16,439 nucleotides of DNA from Armatimonadota bacterium (GTDB lineage Bacteria; Armatimonadota; Armatimonadia; Armatimonadales; Armatimonadaceae). Position 1 is the stretch's first letter; the number at the start of each line of letters is the position of its first letter. The stretch lies in NCBI GenBank assembly GCA_043754515.1, contig JAYUUO010000054.1, positions 1 through 16,439 of the forward strand, in the 5' to 3' direction. The notes beneath the pieces were generated by a model. The model made no database searches and was not told the origin of the DNA. It saw only the letters and a list, made by a program, of their open reading frames with translations. The position numbers and the translations under genes were made by a program. Positions 1 through 15,971 of the stretch are shown here, piece after piece.

Positions 1-98
1 CCGAAATACATGACATTTAGAGCCACCGTTATTTGATGGGGCTTCCTCTGAAAAACACCGGCGACGGGTAAATCCTAAATGTCATGTATTTTGGTACA
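1..98. repeat. Inverted-repeat-bounded ~95-100 bp element (MITE-like), probably starting just left of the window
   Basis: 1-20 CCGAAATACATGACATTTAG is the reverse complement of 75-94 CTAAATGTCATGTATTTTGG at 19/20 positions. The right arm continues TACA. The element abuts the point where IS3 transposase similarity begins. Confidence 0.6.
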
Positions 99-100
99 CA

Positions 101-665
101 CACTTAATGTATGTTGGTTTGACTGCGGGGTGGCTGTATCTGGTCGCTTTCCGGGACTGGCTCAGGTTTTTCGGCTCCGCCGAAAAGACCGACTCGCGCT
201 TCGTGGTCGCTTGGGAGTCCAGGTGGAAACGTGTTTCCACCGCGTCGGACACGCTGGAAATAGCGTTTGTTTTGGCGTGCGGTCAAGCGGCTTTGGCAAA
301 AGCCGTGCCTGAGATCGTCAATTCGGATCAGGGCAGCCACTTTACGAGTGAGCGATTTACGACGCTGTTCCTGACAGCGGGAGCGCAGGTCTCTATGGAT
401 GGTCGTGGTCGTTATGTGGATAACATTTTCACGGAACGTTTGTGGCGTTCCGTGAAATACGAAGAAGTTTACTTGACAGAGTACGACAGTCCGCGAGCGG
501 AACGAGTAGAAATCAGTCGTTATTTGTCGTTTTACAATGAAATTTGTCCACATCAGGCACTTGGTTATAGGACGCCGAAATCGGTTTATGAAGGTTATCC
601 GTCACAAACGGGAAATAGTTCTTAAATTACCGCCTGAATCTGTCTTGACAAATGGGACCACCATA
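101..665 (+). mobile_element. IS3-family insertion sequence remnant (3' part of orfB plus right end)
   Basis: Integrase-core ORF followed by CTTAAA...CTGTCTTGACAAATGGGACCACCATA (621-665), which resembles IS3-family right ends. No orfA or left end is visible. Confidence 0.8.
107..625 (+). pseudogene. IS3-family transposase OrfB, truncated DDE integrase core
   Basis: Motifs GWLYLVA..DW, NSDQGSHFTS, SMDGRGR..DNIFTERLWRSVKYEEVY and FYN...PHQALGYRTP. The first catalytic motif (DITY) reads H-L-M-Y, the N-terminus is missing, and two extra peptides are inserted. Confidence 0.88.
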
Positions 666-848: not shown

Positions 849-1349
849 CTAGTAGATGTGCTGGTTGGGGAGATATATGTCGCCGAGCCCCGCGACGCAT
901 TCTGGGCCCACGAGGTAGCTCGCGATGGCGGCGGCCGCGGTAGGGGAGCGGCACTGCCCCTTTTTGCAGTTGATGGCGAAGAAGCTGGCCGCCGACGTGT
1001 GGGCGGCGACGAACTGCCATAGCGCGTCGGCTTGCGCCCCCGCCATCCTCGGGATGTCCCCGAAATCCGCCTCTATATCGTAGCAGCGGAGGTGGTGCGC
1101 GCCTAATCGGGTCGGCGAGGGCGGTAGGGTCAGTTTCTTCCCGCTCGGGTTGCCGAAACAGATGCTCACGAACGGCACGTCGTACGCCCGGGCCTCCGCC
1201 TGGGCGACCGAAAACACGACGATCTGTTTGTCCCCGAGTGGGGTTCGGACAGTAAAAATCGGCCGCTCCCGGCCAGGGTCGGCGCGGTACACAGATACCG
1301 ACGCCCACTGAGCGGGGTTCGCCCTACAGCGGGCGTAGCGCGCCGCCAT
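849..1349 (-). CDS. Protein-tyrosine/dual-specificity phosphatase-like protein (CX5R); start uncertain, stop possibly premature
   Basis: P-loop-like INCKKGQCRSPTAAAAI, upstream HLRCYDI and C-terminal PNQHIY. The frame is open back to 1550, but that extension is low-complexity, so ATG 1349 is preferred. Confidence 0.62.
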   Translation of the reverse strand: MAARYARCRANPAQWASVSVYRADPGRERPIFTVRTPLGDKQIVVFSVAQAEARAYDVPFVSICFGNPSGKKLTLPPSPTRLGAHHLRCYDIEADFGDIPRMAGAQADALWQFVAAHTSAASFFAINCKKGQCRSPTAAAAIASYLVGPECVAGLGDIYLPNQHIY

Positions 1350-1459
1350 GTCCTTGGCGGCGGCATTTTGTGACGTATGACAGCCGGGCGAGGCCGCCCT
1401 CGCCTGGCACCCGCCGGCGGCTGCGCGGCCGCAACCCTGGCGGCCTCCGTGAGAGGCCG

Positions 1460-1726
1460 CGCGGAGCGCAGTTCGGCCAGGACACGGGCTACGCGGTGCT
1501 GACGATAACGACGACTGCGGAGCGATTGGGGCGGCTACTATGCCAGTCACGCTCTATCGGCACCGGGCATCTGTTCCGTCACGGAACAACACTGTCCGAA
1601 CTATTCACCGCCGAGGAAGCCACTCCCGTCTGGAGCCAGCAGGGGCTTAACGCGAAAGAGACGCTACAAGGCATTATGTGTCCCTTGCTGGACGCACGGG
1701 AGGAACCAAGCGGATGGCGGCAGTAG
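1460..1726 (+). pseudogene. Possible C-terminal remnant of a replication-relaxation-family-like protein
   Basis: FGQDTGYAVLTITTTAERLGRLL...GHLF...TPVW resembles my recollection of the Replic_Relax C-terminus (VLtvTtS.eR..nL...lF...vW). There is no credible start or N-terminal domain. Confidence 0.25.
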
Positions 1727-1827: not shown

Positions 1828-3096
1828 GTGGCATGCAAATTGCAGAATCGACTTGTATTGGAAAACTCAACGTCAAGTATTGGGGTCGCCCCCAAATACG
1901 GAGTGATCGAACTGTTCGCTGGCGCGGGTGGGCTGGCGCAAGGCTTTCTCCAGAGTGGGCGATTCGCACTGCTCGCTCTGAGTGACAAAGAAGAAAGCGC
2001 GCGACGCACATTCAGGAACAACTTCCCCGACATACCCTACTCCAAGGATGACATACGTGTTCTCGGCGTAGAGGGTATACGTAGAGCGGCTGGGGACGCG
2101 GCGATTTCCGGCATCTTGGGGGGGCCGCCCTGCCAAGGCTACAGCGTAAACGGCAGGCGCAAATCAGACGACGAACGCAACGACCTAACTCTGGAATATG
2201 CCAGGATCGTGAAGGCGATCCGCCCCGGCTTCATGTTAATGGAAAACGTCCCACAGGCGTTGTACCACCCACACTTTAAGAAATTACTGGAGACGTTAGG
2301 TGCCGACTATAAGGTTCTATTCACCGTTCTCAACGCGGCGCGATACGGCGTACCTCAAACCCGCCACCGCGCCTTCGTCCTTGCTTACCGTAATGACCTT
2401 GACGTCGTCCCCACGTTCCCCGCGCCGACACACGGTTTCGTCACCCGACCGACATACAACTATTTCTCACAGCGGCTTGCCAATCCCGAAGAGCACCCGG
2501 ACGACATAAACGCGATCTTAGGCGCGGATTCCGTCGTGGTACGATTCGCCGAAGATCATAAAACGGAGACGTCCATCGGCGGACGATGGGACGGCGGCGG
2601 TACCCACCCCCCGCTACGGCCGTTCAACAATATCCAGGAGGCTCTCGGCGATCTCGACTCGGTTCTCGCCGTCGCCGTAGAAGGGGATGAGGCGGCGCGA
2701 GATCTGAAGAATCATGTGTATCGTCTTCACACCCCGCGTATGCTGAAGCGAATCAAGGGGATCGAGGAAGGGCTTGATTTACGGAACGTGAAGGACGCGG
2801 ACATGCTACCGAAAAGCCACTACTCGCAGGCTTACGGTCGGTTGCATCGGATGGGACTCGCCCGAACTATCACGACCTTCTTCACCAACCCGGGAAGCGG
2901 CAGATTTCTACACCCTTACTTCGATAGGACACTCACCGTCCGGGAGGCGGCGCGGTTGCAGACCTTCCCGGACGGCTATGTTTTTAGCGGCACACAGGAG
3001 GAGCAAATGCGACTCGTCGGGAACGCCGTGCCGCCGCTTTTAGCGCGGGCGATCGCCGAGCACATAGCGAAGGAATTGGCGGGGCGTGAGCCGTAG
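1828..3096 (+). CDS. DNA (cytosine-5)-methyltransferase (DruM-like position)
   Basis: C5-MTase motifs in order: I ELFAGAGG, IV GGPPCQGYS, VI LMENV, VIII PQTRHRAF, variable TRD, IX RTLTVREAARLQTFP, X VGNAVPP. The exact start is uncertain. Confidence 0.96.
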   Translation: MACKLQNRLVLENSTSSIGVAPKYGVIELFAGAGGLAQGFLQSGRFALLALSDKEESARRTFRNNFPDIPYSKDDIRVLGVEGIRRAAGDAAISGILGGPPCQGYSVNGRRKSDDERNDLTLEYARIVKAIRPGFMLMENVPQALYHPHFKKLLETLGADYKVLFTVLNAARYGVPQTRHRAFVLAYRNDLDVVPTFPAPTHGFVTRPTYNYFSQRLANPEEHPDDINAILGADSVVVRFAEDHKTETSIGGRWDGGGTHPPLRPFNNIQEALGDLDSVLAVAVEGDEAARDLKNHVYRLHTPRMLKRIKGIEEGLDLRNVKDADMLPKSHYSQAYGRLHRMGLARTITTFFTNPGSGRFLHPYFDRTLTVREAARLQTFPDGYVFSGTQEEQMRLVGNAVPPLLARAIAEHIAKELAGREP

Positions 3097-3197
3097 AACG
3101 GCGGCTTCGACAGATCGTACGGGCCGGCCCGTCCGCCCATACGCCGGACATTTTCGATCCCAGGTCGTCGCCACGAGTAGACGAATGATCGTACTAA

Positions 3198-3203
3198 AAG
3201 GAG
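3198..3203 (+). promoter_or_regulatory. Shine-Dalgarno sequence for the ~785-aa gene
   Basis: AAGGAG lies 6 nt before ATG 3210. ATG 3204 directly abuts the SD and is a less likely start. Confidence 0.65.
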
Positions 3204-3209
3204 ATGCGA

Positions 3210-5567
3210 ATGCCGAGTTTTCCGATGCGCCCGCAACACAGGGCGACCCCGAGAAATGGCGGGTCTGGGGACGTCGCCCCGTCAGACATTGCACTCGCGG
3301 ATTTGGTAAAGCCAGAACTACTCGCGGTCGTCATGCCGAACGCGGGGCAGAGTTCCCCTACCGACTCAAGAAACGGGCACCGCGTTCGGACCGTCCGTGT
3401 ACTGGCATACTTACATGCCGCCAAGTGGGAACCGCTCGCCACCGGGGTTTTTTTCGAGTGGAGGGACGCGCCTCCGGAGGCGCGTCCCGATTCGCTTTGG
3501 ATATTGCACGTGAGCCCTGTCCCCGAAGGTTCTGGCGAGGACGGAACGGGCACTGATGACGCCGTAGTGGGCAACCCCATCGCCGTGCCGCGATCGCTCT
3601 CGGTACGCAACTCACACCCCGCCCCCGTCGGGATACTGCAAGTCATGAGGCGGTCAGGGGGGACGAAGCCTTCAGCCGCCTCGGGGAAATTAAAAGCGAG
3701 CCCGTTCCCCCCGTTAATAGCGGGTACTGCAGCCAATTTGAGTGACGAAGACTACTCCGTCATTGATGTCTGCCGACGGGAGTTGGTCGAGCAAGGGCTG
3801 GAGACGCCTCCCTTCGGCGAGATACTCATCCAGATCGAGGAGCGGTGCGTCATCGGGCCGGTCGAACTGCGCGAGTGCCCGGACGGAAGATGGCGGGCGA
3901 GTGCCGGGGAGTACGATGTGCGGTCACATCGCACCTTCGGGACGCATACTAGGTCGGTTAAAATCGGCACCCAGAGTGTGACAATCTATTCACGCGCCTC
4001 CCCTCTACCCTCTATCACGGGGCGGGTAGACTTCGGCGAGGATGACGCCGTGTTCGCGGAAGCGATCCGTCTGATCGCGGGCGGCGAGCCGGAACGAGAT
4101 GATGCCACCTCGACCCGGCGTATGTTCGATCTCTTCAACGAGGGTGACCGCCTGCGTGGGACGCTGGGCAAGAAGCCGCTCGACGGGTACCGCATGTGGC
4201 GATTCAAGATGGCACTTGACACCCTGCGCGAGGATGTCCGGCAACAAGAAGCGTTCCGTGCAGCCATCCTTACGTCGGTGGCCGCGAAGGAAGTAATCGC
4301 CGAGGCCAAGTCCGAGGCGGTGCGGCACGCGGAAGTTGATTTACAGGAAGCACGAAAGCAACTCGGGCGCGAACAGGAGAGTGTGCGGTGTGCGGAGGAG
4401 CGCAATAGTATTCTCAAGAAGCAGATCGCCGAATCCGAGCGGTGTTTGTTGACGCTTGAGCAAGAAACCCGCCATGCGCGGGAGACGCTCTCGGAAGCGG
4501 CGGCGGAGCGCACGGCGGCCATCGCGTCACGGGTCGCCGCTACGATGGTAGAGCGCGTCGGCGCATCCTTGGTGGAGCGCGTCATGGCTCTAATCCCCGT
4601 CCCCGTCCTGACCCCGCTAAAGATGGATTCCCCCGACGTTATCCGACGGTCGTGTCCGGTGACAGTGCCTTGGAAGGCATCTAATGTTCCCGCCTCACGG
4701 AGCGTCCTTGACTCCCTCGCTACACTCAAAGCCGGCTTGAAAAACGCGGGGTTCGACGCGTCCGTAGCGAGTCCCCTTCTCGCATCCTGGCTCGCCGGGC
4801 TGATACCCGTCATCGTGTCACGCGACGAGGAAGCGGCTTTCGCCCGCGCGATCCGTATGTCACTGACGGGGGGGAGGTCGGTGTCGGTTCACGCTGGGGC
4901 GGTCTCTTCATTCGGCGAGTTATTCGGTCGCGTAATCCCCGCGGAGCGGAGCTACGTCCCACATCATGACATGCTCGCGGATGCCGTCCTGACTCTGGGC
5001 GGCGGGGAAGACTCCGGCTTCGCGGTCGCTACGTTCGCGGGGGCGGCGATGTCCGAGGCTAACGCCCTTTTCGCCCCACTCATGGCGGCGTGGAACGACC
5101 CGGCGGAGCGGTTGCCGCTCGTGCATCCCTCGGCCCTCGACCGGGACAATACTTACTACCCCCTATGTACATCGACCTGGCCGGACCGACTATTGCCAGT
5201 CATCTGGTTCGCGGAGAGTGCGTTTCCGATCCCCGCGTCGCCGTCGTTTTGGCGCGGGGCGTCCCTGATTCGCCCACGTAGGGGAGGTTCTGCCCATCCG
5301 GGGGATACCCTCCCACCGCTCCCGCCAGGGGAATGGACGAGACTGCGGGCGGGCGCGGCGACCGCGGGTTCCGGGACCGATACCGCCAAAGTCACTCGCC
5401 TCCGAACGGCACTGCGCTCCCTCGGGGTTTCCGACGTGGAAAGTGATCGGCATGTATTTCTTTGCCATTCGCTGCCGCTCGCGCTCGCCGCGGGAGGGCC
5501 CGAACCAACCCGCCCTCCGGACGTCACAGATGACGATGTCGCGTCGGTGAAAGCGGGGATCTGTTAG
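3210..5567 (+). CDS. Hypothetical protein, DruB-like position; central coiled coil and C-terminal degenerate McrB/AAA+-like region
   Basis: Long ORF with SD, and its stop abuts the next ATG. E/R/K/A-rich helical stretch at ~4290-4530. The C-terminal pattern resembles an McrB-type NTPase lacking intact Walker motifs (inference). Confidence 0.75.
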   Translation: MPSFPMRPQHRATPRNGGSGDVAPSDIALADLVKPELLAVVMPNAGQSSPTDSRNGHRVRTVRVLAYLHAAKWEPLATGVFFEWRDAPPEARPDSLWILHVSPVPEGSGEDGTGTDDAVVGNPIAVPRSLSVRNSHPAPVGILQVMRRSGGTKPSAASGKLKASPFPPLIAGTAANLSDEDYSVIDVCRRELVEQGLETPPFGEILIQIEERCVIGPVELRECPDGRWRASAGEYDVRSHRTFGTHTRSVKIGTQSVTIYSRASPLPSITGRVDFGEDDAVFAEAIRLIAGGEPERDDATSTRRMFDLFNEGDRLRGTLGKKPLDGYRMWRFKMALDTLREDVRQQEAFRAAILTSVAAKEVIAEAKSEAVRHAEVDLQEARKQLGREQESVRCAEERNSILKKQIAESERCLLTLEQETRHARETLSEAAAERTAAIASRVAATMVERVGASLVERVMALIPVPVLTPLKMDSPDVIRRSCPVTVPWKASNVPASRSVLDSLATLKAGLKNAGFDASVASPLLASWLAGLIPVIVSRDEEAAFARAIRMSLTGGRSVSVHAGAVSSFGELFGRVIPAERSYVPHHDMLADAVLTLGGGEDSGFAVATFAGAAMSEANALFAPLMAAWNDPAERLPLVHPSALDRDNTYYPLCTSTWPDRLLPVIWFAESAFPIPASPSFWRGASLIRPRRGGSAHPGDTLPPLPPGEWTRLRAGAATAGSGTDTAKVTRLRTALRSLGVSDVESDRHVFLCHSLPLALAAGGPEPTRPPDVTDDDVASVKAGIC

Positions 5568-7589
5568 ATGCGAGCATCGAGCCACGCCGACTACACGAGG
5601 TGGAACGCGGAACTGATCGACTACGCTTGCGAGTACGGCGTCGACCCAGACGGGCGGTTCTTCCTCGTCGTGCGGCAAATGCTCGAGGACGCGGAGTCCT
5701 CCGGCCAACTAACCGCCGAGCAAAGCTTCCTCCAGGCCGTGCGACAGGAATACGCAGAACTGCTTTTATCCACCGATGACCCGCTCGGGACGTTGCGCGG
5801 GATGCGCGATCCTAAGGGACGCCCCCTTTGCGTAGGCATGCTCGGGGCATTCGTGCTGGCCGCGGAGGACATGGTAGACAACGGCTATTATGATCACCTC
5901 GGGCGTCTACTCGCGCAACACCGGACGCCATCCGCTGTGACCGGATTCGTGGGCGAAACGTTCGAGTCGTGTTGGGACGCGCTCGATCAATTTCTGCTAC
6001 CCTGCGGCTATTACCTCGCCAAGCCGGAAGGAGGGAAGCGATATGTGAAGTGGCCTCGCATGCACGCACTCCTCCGGGCGTGCGACGTGGAAAAACTGCC
6101 CACGTTCTTTATGTGGGCGGGGACATCTCCGACGAGCAGTGTTGCCGAGGGCCGGATGAAAACCCGTTTCGATTATTGGCTCTCAAGCCAGCACTGCAAC
6201 TTCACCCAGTCCGGCAAGAAGGCGAGCCAACATGATGTTCGGGGCCCCGCCATCCTCAGGCAGGTTATGCGCGTGTTTAGCGGGTGGGACGGGACCCCCC
6301 GGACGTCAACCCAAAGAGGCGGTGCACCCGGGGGGAAGCGTTCCGTGCCCACCGGGGTGCGGATATTCGCCGACGTCCCCGCGCCCCCTGCCGAACCGAC
6401 GCTCTGGCTCCGGGCGGAGAAAAAAGCGGGGTGTCCGCCCGGGTTCACGATAGGAGGTGTGCACATCACGGCGACCCGGGATGACGACCCGTTCTACCCG
6501 GATGTCCTTCTCCCGCCATTCTGGAAGGATCACATTCTGATAAACGGCACTTCTTCGGTGTCGGATAACAAGAAATTTGTGTTCCGAGGCGCAGAGGCAT
6601 TCGCGCTTTGCTGGATGGATGACACGGGGGGGTACGAGTCACGCGACGCCCTAATCGCCGGAGTTACCGCCGCCGCTGTCTGCACCGCCGGTATAGCCCC
6701 CTCTCTCGAAAGGCACTTATGTCACCTGAGCGGCAAGGCATCGCCCCCGAAACGGATCACTCTGGGCGGGTGCTTACCGGGATGGTATCTATACCACGGC
6801 TTCGTCCCCAACGTGATTCTCCCCGCCCCGATGGGCCTGGACAACTTCGGCGTCGAAGACCGCCTGACAATCCGGCCGGTAGGCGGCTTGCGACTGGGTC
6901 GGCAACGTGAATGGATGCACGGTATGCCTCCAGTTTCCATTGACGTGCTAGGAGTCTCGCCGCCGCCGACGGTCAGCGTGAACGGGAAAGACGTGGATAC
7001 ACGAGCTGAGACCGCCCACCTGTTCGGGAACGCCCAGACCTACGAACTGAGGGCGGGACGTTTCGACTACCGGCTCAGCGTCGTGGAACCGCGTCTTTCC
7101 CTGACCCTGCTCGACGCGATGTCGCAAATATTCAGCGCGCCGGCGGCATCGATCGAAGATGCCTCCGCCTTCGGCGGAAACCAAGAAGCGTGTCTCGGTG
7201 AACTGAGGAAGGGCGGGCGGGCCTATTTCATAGGGAGTGTGCCGGGATTCATCGCCTCCGCCGAGTCATCTGTGCGACCGGGTTGGGCACGATGGCTCGT
7301 CGTTTTGTCGGATGAGGCGGCGGTCGTGGTGCGTTTATGTGCATCGCCCGGCGATGAACACGGGGGCACCTCCCCCATGCCGGGAGCGGCTATACAGGCA
7401 TGGGGCGACATCGCGCGGGCGGTGCTCAGCCGGATATTTTGGGGTGGTTGCCGGATCGGTATACTCGCGGGCGAACTCGAAGCTGGCGGAACCGCCGGAA
7501 ATAATCAAGAGGCGTTTACGCGCCGTTGGGCGCGTATGGCGCATTCCGCAGCGGAAGCACGCTGCCCGTCTCGTAAGGACAGCCGTTAG
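5568..7589 (+). CDS. Hypothetical protein, 673 aa, DruC-like position
   Basis: Long ORF coupled on both sides (TAG-ATG, TAGTG). The N-terminal Y..WN..L, VLAAEDM...YY..L and GG.R.G..REW patterns recall proteins found upstream of DUF1998 helicases. The Dru assignment is by synteny and size. Confidence 0.75.
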   Translation: MRASSHADYTRWNAELIDYACEYGVDPDGRFFLVVRQMLEDAESSGQLTAEQSFLQAVRQEYAELLLSTDDPLGTLRGMRDPKGRPLCVGMLGAFVLAAEDMVDNGYYDHLGRLLAQHRTPSAVTGFVGETFESCWDALDQFLLPCGYYLAKPEGGKRYVKWPRMHALLRACDVEKLPTFFMWAGTSPTSSVAEGRMKTRFDYWLSSQHCNFTQSGKKASQHDVRGPAILRQVMRVFSGWDGTPRTSTQRGGAPGGKRSVPTGVRIFADVPAPPAEPTLWLRAEKKAGCPPGFTIGGVHITATRDDDPFYPDVLLPPFWKDHILINGTSSVSDNKKFVFRGAEAFALCWMDDTGGYESRDALIAGVTAAAVCTAGIAPSLERHLCHLSGKASPPKRITLGGCLPGWYLYHGFVPNVILPAPMGLDNFGVEDRLTIRPVGGLRLGRQREWMHGMPPVSIDVLGVSPPPTVSVNGKDVDTRAETAHLFGNAQTYELRAGRFDYRLSVVEPRLSLTLLDAMSQIFSAPAASIEDASAFGGNQEACLGELRKGGRAYFIGSVPGFIASAESSVRPGWARWLVVLSDEAAVVVRLCASPGDEHGGTSPMPGAAIQAWGDIARAVLSRIFWGGCRIGILAGELEAGGTAGNNQEAFTRRWARMAHSAAEARCPSRKDSR

Positions 7590-8548
7590 TGAGTGCCGAC
7601 CCGAACATCCTCCTACACTGGGCGAGCCACCGGGGTACATTCACGGGGCAACAATGGCGCGACGCCGTCGCCGTCGTGGCGAGGTGGCGGGATGACGAGG
7701 CGGAGATGATTTTTCGCGCGGCACTGATCAAACGTATGAGACTCCTATGTCACGTGACGGAACTGGATGGGCACTATCAGACGTACCTCCCCTGCCTCGC
7801 GGCGGCGGAGCCACGCACCGGCGGCGACCTCTCCGTCTTCTGGTGCGGCGCGCGGGTCCCGGCACTGGTGAGACACGCGGAGCGGGTGGCGGCGAAGCAC
7901 GGGTGTGCGTGGAACACGGAGCGGCTGTCCTGCGCCCCCGACCGCTTGTCGCTGACCGGCAGTGCCGCGTCGCTAGCGGCTTGCGCGTCCGAACTTGGCG
8001 TGCGCCTCGCGGGTTTCGCGGCGCGGCGGGCGTTGACCCACATCAACCCGCTACCTAACCCGGTTTCCCAGAGTAATAAGGCGGGATCCTTACCGCCTGC
8101 CGCTAGGGTGGAGACGTTTGATTTTGATTCAGGAACGTGGTGCGTCAAAAAGCCGGGGAAATACGCGGCACAGAAGTACAAGCCGCAGTTCGACGCGACG
8201 CGTTACTATTACGCGGAGTGCGGGGTGCGGTACAACATCGCAGAGGCTGGCACGGCCATCCTACTCGCCGCAGACCGTAGCCGAATCCCGGTGTGTGAGT
8301 ATGACACGGAGACGGCCATGTTCGTCGCACCCAGAGATCTGCCCTTCGCGGCCGCTCGCGCACTCTGCCTTTGCTCCGGCTACCCGCCTGTGACCGACCT
8401 GAGGACAAATCGCCAGATCTACCGCGACGTGCCGTCCGGAATCGCCGCCGTGGTACTAGAGCGTCTGGGGCAGTACGAACTCGTCGTGAAGCCGGCTATC
8501 GTCTGGCTCCACGACGGGCTCGATAGGAAAGAGAAGAGGATTACCTGA
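7589..8548 (+). CDS. Hypothetical protein, 319 aa, DruD-like position
   Basis: GTG start overlapping the upstream stop, with AAGGA at 7575-7579. Motifs LLHWASHRG, WCGAR, ARALCLCSGYPP and YRDVP..IA..VL..LGQ. It lies directly upstream of the helicase (TGATG overlap). Confidence 0.75.
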   Translation: MSADPNILLHWASHRGTFTGQQWRDAVAVVARWRDDEAEMIFRAALIKRMRLLCHVTELDGHYQTYLPCLAAAEPRTGGDLSVFWCGARVPALVRHAERVAAKHGCAWNTERLSCAPDRLSLTGSAASLAACASELGVRLAGFAARRALTHINPLPNPVSQSNKAGSLPPAARVETFDFDSGTWCVKKPGKYAAQKYKPQFDATRYYYAECGVRYNIAEAGTAILLAADRSRIPVCEYDTETAMFVAPRDLPFAAARALCLCSGYPPVTDLRTNRQIYRDVPSGIAAVVLERLGQYELVVKPAIVWLHDGLDRKEKRIT

Positions 8549-11500
8549 TGACCGACCCGTTCCGCGTTTTCGACGCCGTTCGCACTTCCTACCTGCGCTA
8601 CCTGGAAAGCCCGTTCCGGCTCCGCTACGACGATGTCATGCGGGAGCGGCGTGGTCTGCTCGACAGGGAGGGCGAGTTGTACCGTGAGCCTTTGTTCGAG
8701 CCGATGCCGCCGTACGTCTCCGACGGCAAAACGGTCTCCCAGACCTGTATAGACTTCGGCATCCCGCCGCAGGTCGGCGGCTTTCTGACAGCGGGACTGT
8801 TTCCCGCGACTGGTCATCTGTACAGCCACCAGTACGACGCGTGGCGCATATCACGTACAGGGAAGCCCGTCGTCGTCACATCCGGGACGGGTTCCGGGAA
8901 AACAGAATGTTTCCTTCTGCCGCTTTTCGCCCACCTAGCCGAGGAGGGGCTGCGCGATTGGGCGAAGGAATCGAACACCGGGGCGACGGGGAACTGGTGG
9001 GACGCACCCGGGAAGCGCAAAGAACAACGCGCGACGGAACCCCGGAGCCACGTGGGGGCGGTGCGCGCCCTCATGTTGTATCCGCTGAACGCCCTCGTCG
9101 AGGATCAGCTGAGTCGCATCCGCGAGGCTTGTGACTCGGGGCTGGCGTCCCACTGGCAACGTGAAAATATGGGAGGACACCGGATCTGGTTCGGGAGGTA
9201 TATCGGGGCGACCCCGATCCCCGGCCGCCCCGATTCCACCGAAGCGAAGAAGAGCGAGCACAAGAGAAAGATGACGGCCATGTCGCAGGACTGGCGTAAG
9301 GCGAATCGCTCCTGCGCCAGACTCCGTGCCCGGGCGGATGTCGCCGAACAGGGCGGCGACCCCGCCCGCGCCAAGGAGCTACGCCGCGACGCGGAACGGG
9401 CACTGCTGTTCTATCAAAACCCGGACGGGGCGGAAATGTGGTCGCGCTGGGATATGCAGGCGAGTCCGCCCGACATCCTGATCACCAACTACTCCATGCT
9501 GAACATCATGCTCATGCGCGGCGTAGAGAGCGGCATCTTCGAGAAGACGAAGGCGTGGCTCGCGGCGGATCGTAGGGGGAATGTTTTCCACCTGGTGGTG
9601 GACGAACTACACTCCTACCGGGGGACCCCCGGCACGGAGGTCGCCTACCTCCTCCGGGTGTTCCTCGACAGGATCGGGCTTTCGCCGGACTCGCCGCAAC
9701 TGCGGATCATCGCCACGTCCGCATCCATCGAGGAAAGCGACCCGAAGAGCCGCCTTTACCTGGAGGCGTTCTTCGGGCGGGACGGAGCCGATTTTGCCAT
9801 CCTGCCCGGCGACCGGACGGTCTACCCTCCCGCGCCGGGGGGCGTCGCGGGGCATGCCACCGCGCTCGCCACTTTCAACCGCGCCGTGTCCGCCGGGTCA
9901 GGCGTGGCGTCGCCCGAGGCGGCGGGAGAACTCGCCCGCAGTCTGTCGCCCGGCTCCCCGGATCTCGGCGAGGCGTTGAAGGCGTCGGGCGCGTTAGAGG
10001 TGCTACGCTTGGCAGGTAACAGCAAACCATTCACCGCCTCCCGGTTGGCGGAGGAAGCGTTCGGCGGTGCCGACGGCATGGGACTGGCGGCGGCGAAAGG
10101 TCTCGTGCAAGCCGCCACCTCGGCCGGCGATGTCGTCCCGCTACCGCTACGATGCCATCTATTTTTTCGCAACGCCGGGCGGATGTGGGCATGCGCGAAC
10201 CGCGCCTGCGGCGGGGCGCGTCACGAGGGGGCTGTCGCGGGTCAGATACGCCCGATAGGTAAACTATTCAGCGAGCCACAAACCCGCTGCGACATCTGCG
10301 GCTCCGCGGTACTAGAGCTACTCTACTGTCAGGCGTGCGGCGAGACATTCTTGGGCGGATACAAAGACGCGGGCGGGCAACTCACCCCCGACTACCCGGA
10401 TTTGGAATCTCTGCCCGATAAAACACCCGGATTCGAGCGCAAGTACGGCGAATACTCCCTGTTCTGGCCCGCCGGGGATAAAGAGTTATACGAAAATAAT
10501 GCCCCTGCGGGCGTGCGGGCAAGACCCGTCTGGTCGTGGCAACTCGACAACGAGATGTGCCGGTGGGAACCGGGGACCCTGCACCTGCTCTCCGCCGTTC
10601 TGGAACACCGACTCACCCGCGATGAGCCCGCTCCGGACAATTCGGTCGGCTATGTTTTCGCGGCGGCGGGCGACGAGGGCAAAGCACTCGCCAGCCGTTG
10701 CCCGCACTGCGGCGAGGATTGGGGTAAGCGCAAACACGGCCCGAAATCCCCGATTCGCTTCCTCAGTGCGGGCGTACAACGTATCACGCAGTTGATGTAC
10801 GATTCGCTTTTGCGGGAGATGCCGGACGCCCGGAACCGAAAACTCATCCTTTTCTCAGACAGTAGGCAGGACGCCGCCAAGTTGTCCACGGGTATCAAGG
10901 GGAGTCATTACCTGGACGTCCTGCGACAAGCCGCGTTTTCAGCAATGACGGACGGGAGAGCGTCCCGATCTTCCGAGAGGGACGCGCGCGACGAGGAGCG
11001 GAGTCGTGCCGGAACGCTACTAACCCTGCTCCGGCGCAGAAAGGACGGTACGGCATCGACCGCGGAGTTGGAAAGCATTCCGACCTTGATGCAATCATGC
11101 GGCGAGTCGGCGATGGAGATCATGCTCCACGTCGACTACGGCATGCGACCCCCGGATTTGCTCGCCGAGCCTCCCCCGCCCGTGCCCCCGTTCACGACGG
11201 CGTCTTACCCACAACTTTCCGCCACTTGTCGCAAAAGGCTACTCTCGCACGGAGTTAATCCGGGCGGCGTGGGCAGGCTTGTCACCACTCACGAAGATTC
11301 GGACGGGCGCGAACTAGCCCACTGGCGTTCGATAGTAGATTGGCAGTCGCTGGAATACACCCCCCACCCGTCAGGAGCGCAGGGGGCATTGCGGGATCGC
11401 ATCGAAGAAGCCGCGCGCGAGGCACTATTGACCCGCGTCCTCTTCGCCACGGGGAACCGTGATTTCGAGTCGCTCCGCCTGGGTTACTTAAGCCTGGAAC

Positions 11501-14187
11501 CGTCCGAGGCGAACAGCTGGTTGGAACAAGTATCCGGCGTTTCCCTTCGCCTACTCTGTCGCAAGTGGCGCATCGAACGTATCGGGGAACCCGCGAGGGC
11601 AATGCCTTCATACGTTAATAAGTACGTGGATGCCGCCGCTCGTGCGGACGGACGAGGGGTCGAGGCCGCCCGAACGACGGTGCGCAACCATCTCATCGAC
11701 AGCGGGGCGGTCACCGGCGAGTGGCTCGTCCGCTCGGAGCAATTAAACGTCGTGATGCCACACCCCGACGCTCAGGCACAACTGCGGCTTTGGCGGTGCG
11801 CCCGATGCCTGCGCATACACTTGCACCCGTCCGCCGGTGTCTGCTCGCAGTGCTACCGACCGCTGGGGGCGGAGCCCGTACTCGAGAAAGTGGATGACGA
11901 ATCCGCGTTCGACTTCTACGAGTTCCTCGCCCGCACCTCCCCGCCGATGTTCCGGCTTTCGTGCGCCGAATTAACCGGGCAGACCGACGCGGAGGAGCGA
12001 CGCTCCCGGCAGAGGCGATTCCAAGATGTGTTTCTCGATGACGAGATACCGCTCGCGGACGGGGTTGACCTGCTCTCGGTCACGACGACGATGGAGGCGG
12101 GCGTCGATATCGGTTCGCTCCTCGCCGTGGGGCTGGCGAACATGCCGCCGATCCGCTTCAATTATCAGCAACGGGTCGGTCGCGCCGGGCGGCGCGGAGC
12201 AGGATTATCGGTCGCACTCACGTTTTGCCGGGCCAGAACTCATGATGAATATTATTTCGCCCGGCCGGAACGCATCACCGCCGATCCGTCGCCTACTCCT
12301 ACCCTCGATGTCGAGCGAATCGCTATCGCGGAGCGAGTTGTCAATAAGGAGTTACTACGGCTCGCCTTAAACCCGGAGGGGGAAGAGGAAGCCCCGAGCG
12401 GTCCCGATGTTCACGGTGAATTTGGTACTCTGGATGACTGGGAACAACGCAACAAAGATACAGTGCGGCGTTGGTTTGCAAACAACACCGAGAAAGTAAA
12501 AAGTGTCTGTCGCACGGTCGCTTACAAGACTCGCATATCCCCCGACGACTTAACACAACACGCGATGTCGCTTCCCAACCGAGTAGAAGATGCGGTTCGC
12601 GCCGCGATAGCGGAAGGGGTTCACATCGCGCCGGATTCTCCTCTCAGTAAACGTCTCGCTAGTGACGGGCTTCTGCCTATGTTTGGATTCCCGACGCGAA
12701 TTCGTAGTCTCTATCATCAACAACCTAAGGAGTTTCCTGTCCGAAAAGGAACGGTAGAGCGCAATTTGGATATCGCAGTCAGTCAATTCGCGCCGGGAGC
12801 ACAAACAGTAAAAGATGATGCGATCCATACTGCTATTGGTGTCGCAAACTTCAAGCCGAAACGCCGAGGATCATCTGTTGATTTGGTCGCACAACCAAAT
12901 CCGTTGGGAGCAAACGTTCAAATAGGCATTTGCCGCTCTTGTCAAGCGATTGTACCAAATCCAGTGAAAGGGAGTTGTCCAGTCTGCAACACCGCAGAGG
13001 ACGACACAGGGTTCAGAATATCGTCAGTATCTGAGCCGATAGGGTTTATTTCGTTGTGGAAGGCAAGAGCAGACTATAGTGGCAATTTCGAGTACACCCC
13101 CCAATCTTTACGAGCGCGTATGGGAGCAATGCCTGTCGCGCCAAAGAGTCATCGTAATTTTGTTCTTGATTCATTGCGCCAATCTAAAGTGTATTTAGTA
13201 AATGATAATGATGGAAAGGACTTCATTTTCAAGTGTGGCAAATCTGCATACAGAGACATCTGGTATACGGATGAAGCAGTTAAGGTAGCCATTGACGCTC
13301 TACCAAACCAAGATCAGAAGACTTTTACGGGAAAACCGTTCGAGGATACAGATGCAGGAACTATAAAAAGATCGTTGGCATCCATTGCAGTCACTGACAT
13401 AATAACTGTAGGCATCCACGATATTCCAGCGTATTTTTGGATGAGTCCCAATACAGCCGCTGGTAGGGCAACGTGGTACTCGTTTGGTTTTCTAATCCGT
13501 CGTGCCTTGGCGACACGACTTGACGTGCCAGAGGGTGAGGTGCAAGTGGGAATCCAACCTTACACCGACGCACTTGCAGGGACACCACGGACACTAGCAC
13601 GACTTTTCCTCTCGGACACACTGGAGAATGGAGCGGGTTATAGTTCGGCATTTGGGGAGCCGGAGGCAATGGAAGACTTGCTCCGATACATGGTGGATGA
13701 GGCCGATGACTTTGTGAAACCGCTTGCAGACCCAACACATAGCGGACAATGTCGCACCTCCTGCCATCACTGCCTGCGTGACTTCAGTAATATGCCGTAC
13801 CACTCCCTTCTCGATTGGCGCATCGGGCTGGATGTGGCGCGACTCGCACTTGACGGTGATACGTCAGTGACACTTGCAGGAAACAGTTGGGAAGGGGTAG
13901 TAGCGTATGCCGTTTCGACATATTTTCGAGTACACGGACTGACGACAGAGCGGTTCGGTTCCTTAGAAGCCGGAGTCCGCAAGGAGCAGACAGAGGATGG
14001 AGAACGCACGGTCGCCTACACTCTTGCTCACCCGCTTTGGAATCTGCGCCCTGCCCATTTCTGCCGCGATCTCGCTGAGGCATCTGCACAAGCGGAAGCC
14101 GACCCAAGAGGTGTCGTGTTCCGTCCGGTGTCACTCTTTAATGCCTTACGCATCCCGCACAAACTTCCGACTGAGGGTGCGCCATGA
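8548..14187 (+). CDS. druE: Large DEAD/DEAH-box SF2 helicase with zinc fingers and DUF1998-like C-terminus (Druantia DruE-like)
   Basis: Q motif LYSHQ, Walker A SGTGSGKTE (8881-8907), Ia YPLNALVEDQ, ITNYSML, Walker B DELH (9601-9612), III ATSAS, IV LFSDSRQDA, V TTTMEAGVDIG, VI QQRVGRAGR (12166-12192), several CxxC pairs, and C-terminal DTLENGAGY...H-x3-CRTSCHHCL. The 1879-aa length fits DruE. Confidence 0.9.
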   Translation: MTDPFRVFDAVRTSYLRYLESPFRLRYDDVMRERRGLLDREGELYREPLFEPMPPYVSDGKTVSQTCIDFGIPPQVGGFLTAGLFPATGHLYSHQYDAWRISRTGKPVVVTSGTGSGKTECFLLPLFAHLAEEGLRDWAKESNTGATGNWWDAPGKRKEQRATEPRSHVGAVRALMLYPLNALVEDQLSRIREACDSGLASHWQRENMGGHRIWFGRYIGATPIPGRPDSTEAKKSEHKRKMTAMSQDWRKANRSCARLRARADVAEQGGDPARAKELRRDAERALLFYQNPDGAEMWSRWDMQASPPDILITNYSMLNIMLMRGVESGIFEKTKAWLAADRRGNVFHLVVDELHSYRGTPGTEVAYLLRVFLDRIGLSPDSPQLRIIATSASIEESDPKSRLYLEAFFGRDGADFAILPGDRTVYPPAPGGVAGHATALATFNRAVSAGSGVASPEAAGELARSLSPGSPDLGEALKASGALEVLRLAGNSKPFTASRLAEEAFGGADGMGLAAAKGLVQAATSAGDVVPLPLRCHLFFRNAGRMWACANRACGGARHEGAVAGQIRPIGKLFSEPQTRCDICGSAVLELLYCQACGETFLGGYKDAGGQLTPDYPDLESLPDKTPGFERKYGEYSLFWPAGDKELYENNAPAGVRARPVWSWQLDNEMCRWEPGTLHLLSAVLEHRLTRDEPAPDNSVGYVFAAAGDEGKALASRCPHCGEDWGKRKHGPKSPIRFLSAGVQRITQLMYDSLLREMPDARNRKLILFSDSRQDAAKLSTGIKGSHYLDVLRQAAFSAMTDGRASRSSERDARDEERSRAGTLLTLLRRRKDGTASTAELESIPTLMQSCGESAMEIMLHVDYGMRPPDLLAEPPPPVPPFTTASYPQLSATCRKRLLSHGVNPGGVGRLVTTHEDSDGRELAHWRSIVDWQSLEYTPHPSGAQGALRDRIEEAAREALLTRVLFATGNRDFESLRLGYLSLEPSEANSWLEQVSGVSLRLLCRKWRIERIGEPARAMPSYVNKYVDAAARADGRGVEAARTTVRNHLIDSGAVTGEWLVRSEQLNVVMPHPDAQAQLRLWRCARCLRIHLHPSAGVCSQCYRPLGAEPVLEKVDDESAFDFYEFLARTSPPMFRLSCAELTGQTDAEERRSRQRRFQDVFLDDEIPLADGVDLLSVTTTMEAGVDIGSLLAVGLANMPPIRFNYQQRVGRAGRRGAGLSVALTFCRARTHDEYYFARPERITADPSPTPTLDVERIAIAERVVNKELLRLALNPEGEEEAPSGPDVHGEFGTLDDWEQRNKDTVRRWFANNTEKVKSVCRTVAYKTRISPDDLTQHAMSLPNRVEDAVRAAIAEGVHIAPDSPLSKRLASDGLLPMFGFPTRIRSLYHQQPKEFPVRKGTVERNLDIAVSQFAPGAQTVKDDAIHTAIGVANFKPKRRGSSVDLVAQPNPLGANVQIGICRSCQAIVPNPVKGSCPVCNTAEDDTGFRISSVSEPIGFISLWKARADYSGNFEYTPQSLRARMGAMPVAPKSHRNFVLDSLRQSKVYLVNDNDGKDFIFKCGKSAYRDIWYTDEAVKVAIDALPNQDQKTFTGKPFEDTDAGTIKRSLASIAVTDIITVGIHDIPAYFWMSPNTAAGRATWYSFGFLIRRALATRLDVPEGEVQVGIQPYTDALAGTPRTLARLFLSDTLENGAGYSSAFGEPEAMEDLLRYMVDEADDFVKPLADPTHSGQCRTSCHHCLRDFSNMPYHSLLDWRIGLDVARLALDGDTSVTLAGNSWEGVVAYAVSTYFRVHGLTTERFGSLEAGVRKEQTEDGERTVAYTLAHPLWNLRPAHFCRDLAEASAQAEADPRGVVFRPVSLFNALRIPHKLPTEGAP

Positions 14188-15362
14188 ACTTGCCGCAACG
14201 CCCTACGTTCCAGCCACTCCCCTGTATCACGCCAAGTCAATACAACACCGGGCTTTCTTGCCGGGCAAAAGTCGTGTTCGGTAAGCACTACAAGAGGGAC
14301 GCTTTTCCTTCCACCGCCCCGGCGATACTGGGGCAGGCATTTCACGCCGCCGTCGAGTTGGCGACAAGAGGAAGACTTCCGTGGGGCGACGCGGCGCGGC
14401 GCGATGCCGTGCGCTCTCGATTCGCGGAGGCGGCGCGTGAGGCCCTCGCCACGGCCCACCCGTATTTACGCGAACGCTACGGCCGGATGGAAAACTTGCC
14501 CGGCTTCTACCGGCAACAAGAGCGAGCCGTCAGTCTGGCGATGCTATCGGACTCGATTCATCAAAACGTGGGGGTGGCGGTTGATGGTGCCGCGCCGCCT
14601 TCCGACGAGGAGATGCCCGTGCAACCTCATAGCCTTGAGGAGCCGAAAGTGGAATGGTCGGTTTCTTCGCGTGACGGGCTTATCCGAGGGCGTGTTGACC
14701 AATTCGTCCCGGGTAGATGTGAGATAGTTGACTACAAGAGCGGAATCCACGATAGCACGGGCGTGTCGGATTCCGAACTGCGGCAGTTGCGACTGTACGC
14801 CTATTTATGTCACGAGCAGGGGTATGAAGCGCGACGCGGGGTCGTCGTTCGCGCGAGCGGGGCGGTTGACCGAGTAACTATTTCCGAGGAGGAAGCACAG
14901 TGCGAGGGCGATGCGGCGAAGTCTTTCCTCCGCTCGCTCAACGCCGATCTTTCGGCGGGTGGCGTCGGTGGTCTGTGCTCACCGGACGCCGCCCAATGTT
15001 TTCGGTGTGCTTTCGTCCCCATCTGTGACCGATTCTGGGAGGAGGTTTCCGTGGATTGGGGGGAGGCGTCGGGAGTATTCGTTGCGGGCAAGGTGGAGGA
15101 AACACAACGTAATACTGGTGACGAATCGAAAGGAGGGCGGATCGCTTTGCGGGCGGACATTCACGCGGGGAACATGTGCGCCACATCGGTGACAATAGGC
15201 CCGTTGCCGATATGGACTTCCGAGGCTGATGGGAGCGATCCCCTTCAACCCGAGGATGACGTGCGGGTGATCGGGGTCTACAGGAGAGAGGGCGCGGATG
15301 GGCATTTGGGCATGGCCCCTATTGGGTCGCCGTGCGTCTGGCGCATTCCGGGTGGAGAGTAG
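14184..15362 (+). CDS. PD-(D/E)XK nuclease, RecB/AddB/Cas4-like, predicted 4Fe-4S
   Basis: ITPSQ...SCR (first Cys), GQAFH, RGRVD..IVDYKSG, QLRLY and C-x2-C-x5-C (CFRCAFVPIC). ATGA overlap with the helicase stop. Confidence 0.9.
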   Translation: MNLPQRPTFQPLPCITPSQYNTGLSCRAKVVFGKHYKRDAFPSTAPAILGQAFHAAVELATRGRLPWGDAARRDAVRSRFAEAAREALATAHPYLRERYGRMENLPGFYRQQERAVSLAMLSDSIHQNVGVAVDGAAPPSDEEMPVQPHSLEEPKVEWSVSSRDGLIRGRVDQFVPGRCEIVDYKSGIHDSTGVSDSELRQLRLYAYLCHEQGYEARRGVVVRASGAVDRVTISEEEAQCEGDAAKSFLRSLNADLSAGGVGGLCSPDAAQCFRCAFVPICDRFWEEVSVDWGEASGVFVAGKVEETQRNTGDESKGGRIALRADIHAGNMCATSVTIGPLPIWTSEADGSDPLQPEDDVRVIGVYRREGADGHLGMAPIGSPCVWRIPGGE

Positions 15363-15453
15363 CAATAGCGGATGGCGGCTGGAAAACTGTAGCGATAAAC
15401 GAAGATTTTTTAAGACAACAGTCCTTCGCACGTGAAAATGGTTGATAACAGGG

Positions 15454-15459
15454 TATAAT
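15454..15459 (+). promoter_or_regulatory. Possible sigma70 -10 box upstream of the tRNA-like remnant
   Basis: Perfect TATAAT in an AT-rich intergenic tract. The -35 match is weak (GTGAAA, 16-nt spacer). Confidence 0.35.
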
Positions 15460-15481
15460 CAGATTGAGCGGCGCGAAGAAG

Positions 15482-15518
15482 GCCCAGGTTGATTCGTAAA
15501 CAGCAGGTCGGGGGTTCG
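15482..15518 (+). pseudogene. tRNA-Thr(CGT)-like remnant (D-arm deleted, 3' end missing)
   Basis: GCCCAGG-T (acceptor-like 5' strand), TGA-TTCGTAA-ACAGC (anticodon arm, CGT at 15495-15497), AGGTC variable loop and GGGGG-TTCG T-arm start. Similarity ends inside the T-loop. Confidence 0.5.
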
Positions 15519-15971
15519 CGTTCATGGTCGGCAGGTGGACGTCTATCACGAACTCGCACCCGACGTGCCACGCGTCCGTGGTATCGATATGGTACTCCGC
15601 GCCCGACCCGAAGGCCGCCACGTTTTGGGTGCGGATCGTGTAGGCTTCCTGGGCGAAACAGGTCAGCAGACGCGCCCGCCCGAACCCGCCTATGCTCGCG
15701 GAGCCGTTCTCTCCGGAGCCACCTTTTGTCGTCTCCCCTAGGCGGAAGTAGACGTCCTCCAGCACGTCATGGCTCATGCCCGTGCCGTGTCACTGAACGT
15801 CACGCGTACGACGTTTTTGTCCCCGAGGATTTCGCTAGTCGTGACCTCGATTTTCGTCGCCCCGTTGTCTACGGCGTTCTGGATAAGTTCCCGCCAGAAG
15901 GCGGCTTTTACACTCGCATACGAACGTACTTCGTTCCGAAAGAAATTGTTACCGATTGCGATTCGTAGCAT
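15515..15971 (-). pseudogene. GHKL-family ATPase (HATPase_c) N-terminal domain, frameshifted and 3'-truncated
   Basis: ATG 15971 with SD AGAGGA. N-box RELIQNAVD is present. Restoring one base near 15788 gives the G1 box DNGTGM and joins ORFs 15774-15971 and 15319-15777. Downstream are G.TTK, G2 IGGFGRA and GCEFVI. Confidence 0.85.

Follow-up and report, generated by a model that had tools for sequence, protein, structure and literature searches.

A predicted six-gene Druantia operon from an Armatimonadota bacterium, with a type IV-clade helicase and the gene complement of type II

The window analysed here is a whole contig (G000:C54; 16,439 nt) from the genome of an Armatimonadota bacterium. 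Six co-oriented, intact open reading frames (ORFs) on its forward strand span positions 1828-15362, in the order druM-druG-druF-druL-druE-druK (M-G-F-L-E-K; Table 1). The junctions from ORF1 to ORF6 measure 107, 0, -1, -1 and -4 nt, so that the last five ORFs abut or overlap, and both the ORF list and these gaps agree with the span, orientation and close packing given in a preliminary description of the locus. When the bases were shuffled (n = 50), the longest stop-free stretch had a mean of 242 and a maximum of 416 codons. Four of the ORFs are longer than this maximum, and the 319- and 392-aa ORFs, which are not, each have numerous homologues. The gap between ORF1 and ORF2 holds an RBS-like stretch before ORF2; no forward-strand terminator-like site was found between the two genes, no forward-strand sigma-70 site near them, and no tRNA or meaningful repeat array in the window.

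The operon had also been described as lying in decayed mobile DNA. This is borne out on the left, where the C-terminal part of an IS3-family transposase remains according to Pfam. On the right the evidence is weak, consisting of a GHKL/HATPase-like gene split over two reading frames, of which the first piece gives weak HATPase_c and SACS matches (E 0.02 and 0.002) and the second none. The left flank also contains a 20-nt inverted repeat and a reverse-strand ORF without a Pfam match, whose C-terminal part carries a CxxGxxRS loop that, we presume, resembles those of protein tyrosine phosphatases.

Table 1. Positions of the six genes, of neighbouring features and of features seen in related loci (L numbers); blank cells, no value given.
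Feature	Location	Positions	Strand	Length	Assignment or remark
Inverted repeat	window	1-20 and 75-94		20 nt	
IS3-family transposase remnant	window	107-625	+		C-terminal part, left of operon
ORF with CxxGxxRS loop	window	849-1550	-		no Pfam match
ORF1	window	1828-3096	+	422 aa	C5 cytosine methyltransferase, putative DruM role
ORF2	window	3204-5567	+	787 aa	DruG/DruC-family protein, by homology
ORF3	window	5568-7589	+	673 aa	DruF
ORF4	window	7589-8548	+	319 aa	DruL
ORF5	window	8548-14187	+	1879 aa	DruE, YprA-family SF2 helicase with MZB/DUF1998 domain, type IV/II clade
ORF6	window	14184-15362	+	392 aa	DruK, Cas4/AddB-like PD-(D/E)XK nuclease, four conserved cysteines
GHKL/HATPase-like gene	window	15319-15971	-		split over two frames, right of operon
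McrB/CnuB-like GTPase	G000:C17	15031-17028	-		intact Walker motifs
Methyltransferase	L001	2211-4301		~700 aa	sister clade
Methyltransferase	L003	4071-6185		~700 aa	sister clade
Methyltransferase	L013	3728-5902		~700 aa	sister clade
Methyltransferase	L021	4808-6958		~700 aa	sister clade
HhH-GPD glycosylase	L043	5819-6628			
HhH-GPD glycosylase	L046	5214-6971			
HhH-GPD glycosylase	L048	16890-18539			
HhH-GPD glycosylase	L054	8765-10570			
Extended DruF	L012	4463-5662			
Extended DruF	L013	5847-7136			

The largest gene, ORF5, scores 1613 bits against the PADLOC model DruE4, 1477 against DruE2 and 606 against DruE1, and it matches DEAD, Helicase_C and MZB in Pfam. It thus bears the signature of Druantia, a DruE of ~1800-2000 aa with an MZB/DUF1998 domain. 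GTGSGKT, DELH and QRVGRAGR, which we take to be its helicase motifs, are intact, as are eight CxxC motifs; 9wae and 9tu7 are the solved structures that match the protein, and a Pfam scan detected no PLD domain. In a FastTree of 89 DruE proteins, where the quoted supports all lie off the path of re-rooting, ORF5 is sister to the protein of G079 (1.0), and the pair is sister to a clade of 27 loci (1.0) among those with the order F-L-E. Type I loci and M-F-G-E loci each have a clade of their own, and ORF5 lies outside that of the latter. Within the 27-locus sister clade, a methyltransferase gene occurs in 27 loci (one doubtful), F and L in 26, and K in 19.

ORF3 matches DruF2 (9e-16) and DruF4 (6e-07), and ORF4 matches DruL4 (1e-13) as well as positions 743-1028 of the DruF2 models of 1011 and 1030 positions. 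ORF3 aligns to the start and ORF4 to the end of these two long models, F and L form a single protein in L125 and L126, and DruL corresponds to the C-terminal third of the long fused DruF proteins. The matches to opposite ends, together with the fusions, indicate that in one DruF subfamily the C-terminus has been split off as DruL. The AlphaFold model of DruF (pLDDT 82.9) comprises a helical N-domain, beta-sandwich domains and C-terminal helices, and its Ig-like matches go no higher than Z 6.3; the ESM Atlas gave nothing usable for ORF4. ORF2, ORF3 and ORF4 had been called B/C/D-like genes in the preliminary description. The relation to DruC holds for ORF2 (see below), whereas ORF3 and ORF4 proved to be DruF and DruL. 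Comparing profiles, homology between DruF and DruB was not detected (E 0.2 and 0.28), and that between DruL and DruD was weak, with E 0.15 and 0.0017 (probability 15.7%) in two runs. Nor was homology between DruF and DruH detected with a stand-in for DruH, against which DruF and DruL gave E 0.12 and 0.37; the stand-in is an unconfirmed gene upstream of a DruE3-like helicase, without a match among PADLOC models or PDB chains. In the sister clade, DruF is often extended at its N-terminus by 300-430 aa that have no Pfam match, some of which may be start-site overcalls.

ORF6 matches DruK (2e-14) and Pfam PDDEXK_1 (9e-15). Among 31 near full-length sequences (of 33 aligned, the window protein included), C26, C272, C275, C281, D172 and D183 are kept in 31/31 and K185 in 30/31. 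The cysteines follow what we take to be the Fe-S pattern of Cas4 and AddB, for which reason DruK is predicted to carry an Fe-S cluster. PADLOC matches are at hand for the C5 methyltransferase, for DruE and for the Fe-S nuclease, as the preliminary description would have it; its list of Druantia types had left out type IV and DruK, for both of which PADLOC models exist. The per-gene HMM scan against the Dru models that it proposed named five genes (DruM-like, DruF, DruL, DruE, DruK) and missed ORF2.

ORF2 has no direct match to the PADLOC Dru models, and a word-index search with ORF2 alone returned no other protein. A relative occurs in one of 80 related loci (L054; best 80 of 285), and this L054 protein matches DruC1 and DruG2. 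A profile of the two proteins retrieved 377 proteins at E <=0.001. An HMM of 122 full-length family members, from which both were left out, scores ORF2 at E 4e-67, a value that is not fully independent, as the members were gathered with ORF2 in the query. When 36 family members were scanned against PADLOC, 19 matched DruG2/DruC1 and 17 did not, including the six closest relatives of ORF2. The family HMM recognises, at 76-270 bits, the gene that separates druF from druE in seven loci of the M-F-G-E type, PADLOC confirming DruG2 in four of five tested, and it also marks the gene between the DruB-like and DruD genes of type I loci, the DruC slot. On this profile evidence we assign ORF2 to the DruG/DruC family. 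In the family tree it groups with its counterpart from G079, and its position among DruC and DruG proteins is weakly supported (~59-67; labels shifted by re-rooting). A search of the five genomes behind chosen loci with the ORF2 profile gave no match in four.

The ORF2 model (pLDDT 79.9) consists of a beta-rich N-terminus, a long coiled coil at ~325-440 and a McrB/CnuB-like AAA+ domain at ~500-780. It aligns with MoxR 2r44 (Z 13.5, rmsd 4.6, 242 residues) and about equally well with McrB 6hz4 (Z 12.5, rmsd 3.3, 172 residues). Foldseek returned no match at E <=0.001 for the ORF2 or the DruF model, profile searches of PDB sequences for ORF2, DruF and DruL yielded only coiled-coil matches or none, and the ESM Atlas placed ORF2 near unnamed clusters, where AAA/AAA_5 clusters (0.86-0.87) offer no more than a lead. 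Walker A and the DE of Walker B are missing in 124/124 aligned family members, and the AAA+ motifs of ORF2 are more eroded than the family consensus. By sequence, four weak matches of the family profile are intact CnuB-type GTPases; they carry a GTxNxDE motif and are encoded next to McrC-like genes. According to the text covered of Bell et al. (2025, PMC12458937), Druantia I and II encode an inactivated CnuB, and the coiled coil and McrB/CnuB-like fold without Walker motifs in ORF2 fit this description. A separate McrB/CnuB-like GTPase is encoded elsewhere in the same genome (Table 1).

The RecA1 insert of DruE was measured in 67 of the 89 sequences. The eight longest inserts (84-93 aa; 92 in the window, at about residues 216-307) all come from loci with an ORF2-family gene. 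L054 departs from this pattern, having a DruG-family gene and an insert of 70 aa; in the four loci with the other DruC-like family it measures 65-72 aa. Only two lineages supply the long inserts. When DruE 1-430 and ORF2 270-787 were predicted as a complex, the score was 0.00, which gives no verdict either way.

ORF1 matches Pfam DNA_methylase (E 2e-60) and the PADLOC models MTase_II (1e-83) and DruM2 (3e-73). As generic MTase_II models outscore DruM2, the match denotes an activity class rather than orthology. FAGAGG, GGPPC, ENV and GNAVP, which we assume to be the catalytic motifs of C5 methyltransferases, are all intact. ORF1 is only 25-30% identical to the methyltransferases of the sister loci, a tree of 62 methyltransferases puts it outside their clade at the end of a long branch, and its GC content (0.579; genome 0.624) is the lowest among the six genes. 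ORF1 is thus of another lineage than the sister-locus enzymes and may be a swapped-in accessory. Its closest relatives share 50-57% identity, and matches to these were found neither in 351 genomes nor in 310 other genomes of its own phylum, nor among plasmids and viral contigs. The sister-clade methyltransferases, at ~700 aa, begin with a domain that weakly matches the transposase-like DDE_5. In many F-L-E loci an HhH-GPD glycosylase adjoins the methyltransferase or is fused to it (18/80 by HMM; best 80 of 285), and in other F-L-E loci druK is followed by Vsr or HNH genes.

Gene content was surveyed in the best 80 of 285 confirmed loci, of which 31 were left out for short flanks and 49 were counted. 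F and L are present in all 49, a methyltransferase in 38, mostly directly before druF, DruK in 24, M+F+L+K in 23, Vsr in 19, the other DruC-like family in three and the ORF2 family in none; the methyltransferase is absent in 11. All six genes occur together in 0/49, in keeping with the unusual combination noted in the preliminary description. Among 121 relatives, five have a DruE match, G000 included, and searches for the DruE2 family found it in 3/400 and 1/401 genomes. The order G-F-L-E is shared by two genomes of the same family, G079 and G361, the nearest relatives with this core; in the stretches fetched they have neither methyltransferase nor DruK, and the DruG-family gene and DruE of G361 are broken up. 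Two further cases, G218 and G413, are short fragments. A lack of methyltransferase and nuclease in homologous loci, which was to refute the reading of the preliminary description, is seen in the stretches fetched from G079 and G361, and 23/49 loci (from the best 80 of 285) contain M+F+L+K. Elsewhere in the collection, L114, L115 and L120 are type I-like (B-C-D-E) with a UvrD helicase upstream of druB, where druA would be, L115 and L120 having a PD-(D/E)XK nuclease upstream of druB too, and L045, L051, L053, L068 and L103 show F-(DruC/G-like)-L, which sets a type IV core in the gene order of type I-like loci.

By homology, the six genes have the identities given above, the motifs of the methyltransferase, helicase and nuclease are intact, and those for nucleotide binding are lost from DruG. 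Every gene comes from a catalogued family; only the full combination and its order are uncommon. We regard the assignment of the system to Druantia type II/IV as very likely, and the overall explanation, an intact anti-phage operon of this branch, as probable.

The mechanism may be pictured in five steps. DruE would load on phage DNA at single-strand/duplex junctions and unwind it 3'-5', as type III DruE does, and the translationally coupled nuclease DruK would then cut; these first two steps, taken jointly, are a good bet. According to the available text of two preprints, type III DruE loads at duplex/single-strand junctions and moves 3'-5', and type III protects without abortive infection (10.64898/2026.05.13.724313, 10.64898/2026.05.13.724758). 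Cutting is ascribed to DruK because DruE of types I and II is predicted to end in an inactive Vsr-like domain (PMC12458937, text covered). DruF and DruL, as halves of one protein, could fill the position of type III DruH as a scaffold or as a sensor of the substrate, and the dead McrB-like DruG could, free of nucleotide, act on DruE as a coiled-coil adaptor or as a regulator, one that most relatives can do without; we put forward this pair of steps tentatively. Finally, the methyltransferase may mark host cytosines, by which self DNA would be spared, a step that we favour by a small margin. Restriction-modification logic is kept as a plausible candidate. Type I defence has been linked to marking by m6A in the portion consulted of 10.1101/2024.04.14.589459.

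This last step is where the strongest alternative applies, namely that the methyltransferase is a passenger and that the working unit, G-F-L-E(-K), reads the structure of DNA (ends, forks), as type III does, without requiring a self mark. The different lineage and lower GC of ORF1, the 107-nt gap with its RBS-like stretch, and the nearest core relatives G079 and G361, without a methyltransferase in the stretches fetched, all agree with this, and so does type III, which works without host methylation (10.64898/2026.05.12.722862, 10.64898/2026.05.13.724313, as far as these texts were covered). On the other hand, a C5 methyltransferase accompanies 38/49 flanked loci (best 80 of 285) and 27/27 loci of the sister clade (one doubtful), no forward-strand terminator-like site separates ORF1 from ORF2, and several methyltransferase lineages occupy the same neighbourhood, which suggests selection for the activity. 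We consider the passenger reading unlikely.

Far less probable is a distinct type I/II hybrid, in which DruBCD-E would have exchanged DruA for a methyltransferase and acquired a new nuclease, as in the earlier proposal of a type I-like system with the methyltransferase in the druA slot. ORF2 does fall, weakly supported (~59-67), among the DruC-like proteins of type I, DruL reached E 0.0017 against the DruD profile in one of two runs, and the six genes are together in 0/49 loci (from the best 80 of 285). However, the helicase largely refutes this proposal, as DruE4 and DruE2 score far above DruE1 and the tree places DruE in the F-L-E clade; ORF3 and ORF4 are recognised by the models for DruF and DruL but by none for DruB or DruD, DruK is already modelled, and the order is G-F-L-E, not B-C-D-E. 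Equally remote is a decaying island remnant that has lost protection, to which the IS3 remnant and two-frame ATPase-like gene at the flanks, the pieces in G361 and the eroded AAA+ motifs of ORF2 might point, but six frames open over 13.5 kb, coupled junctions and intact catalytic residues speak against it.

Returning to the type II/IV operon, a bolder version can be formulated, in which DruL is the split C-terminus of DruF, DruF and DruL together are the counterpart of DruH, and the dead DruG docks on the lengthened coiled-coil insert of DruE, the locus being a complete type II/IV machine. We hold this to be rather doubtful. If true, this would merge types II and IV into a single modular system that gains, loses or exchanges DruG, DruK and the methyltransferase, and would make G-F-L-E a subtype not yet described, which HMM tools miscall because they miss its DruG. 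The literature searched, which includes PMC11090510 and PMC7251935 as far as they were covered, yielded no mechanistic work on types II or IV; the studies found concern type III and, in one case, type I. No paper was found that names Druantia and DruK together, six name Druantia and DruL, and figures, bioRxiv supplements and subscription journals may already show the gene order. All known type II/IV modules are united here in a single intact operon, in which single-gene deletions could show the roles of DruG, DruL, DruK and the methyltransferase, and also whether the choice between self and non-self rests on methylation or on DNA structure. The result refines the classification and does not constitute a new kind of system.

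Compared with type III (DruH-DruE; 2026 preprints), the locus shares the DruE helicase core, as the matches to 9wae and 9tu7 indicate, and the DruF model resembles the helical-Ig-helical DruH described in the part consulted of 10.64898/2026.05.13.724313. It differs in that no PLD domain was detected in ORF5, and in having a separate nuclease, a methyltransferase and DruG. Type I requires DruA, DruB, DruC, DruD and DruE1 all together, according to the portion seen of the supplement to PMC8565338. ORF2 is related to DruC and DruL may be a remote relative of DruD, but no DruA, DruB or DruD model matches (E up to 0.1), and DruE1 scores 606 bits vs 1613 for DruE4.

Type II, as Doron and colleagues reportedly defined it in 2018, consists of DruM, F, G and E. 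The same requisite genes are quoted in the covered text of PMC8565338. All four functions are present here by homology and DruE2 is the second-best helicase model; DruG is recognised through the family HMM that also marks PADLOC-confirmed DruG2, while the PADLOC DruG models miss ORF2. On the other hand, the order is M-G-F-L-E and not M-F-G-E, DruE falls outside the M-F-G-E clade, and DruF belongs to the F+L subfamily and not to that of the M-F-G-E loci (models PDLC00018/19/22). With type IV, defined as lacking DruM and DruG in the text covered of Payne et al. (2021, PMC8565338), the locus shares the DruE4-type helicase, the co-located DruF and DruL and the order F-L-E, but it adds a C5 methyltransferase, a DruG-family gene and DruK, contrary to the clause on DruM and DruG. 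The published type II/IV boundary (M and G present vs L) does not hold, because M accompanies F-L-E in 38/49 relatives (best 80 of 285) and DruL corresponds to the C-terminal end of DruF where the two are fused.

The locus also resembles the Type II-like / Type IV CoCoNuT of Bell et al. (2025, PMC12458937), which in the text covered share a YprA helicase with a RecA1 coiled-coil insert and an inactivated CnuB/McrB-like GTPase with a long coiled coil in the operon. The six-gene order, DruK and the F/L split are absent from that text, figures aside. Among the rows seen of its table, the Type II-like entries include the helicases of L001, L018 and L021 (sister clade) and those of L041 and L139; two other accessions were not found in these rows, and the window DruE nests among the listed relatives. 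Judged by homology, the locus joins a type IV-clade helicase to the full type II complement, and it fits this broader Type II-like class.
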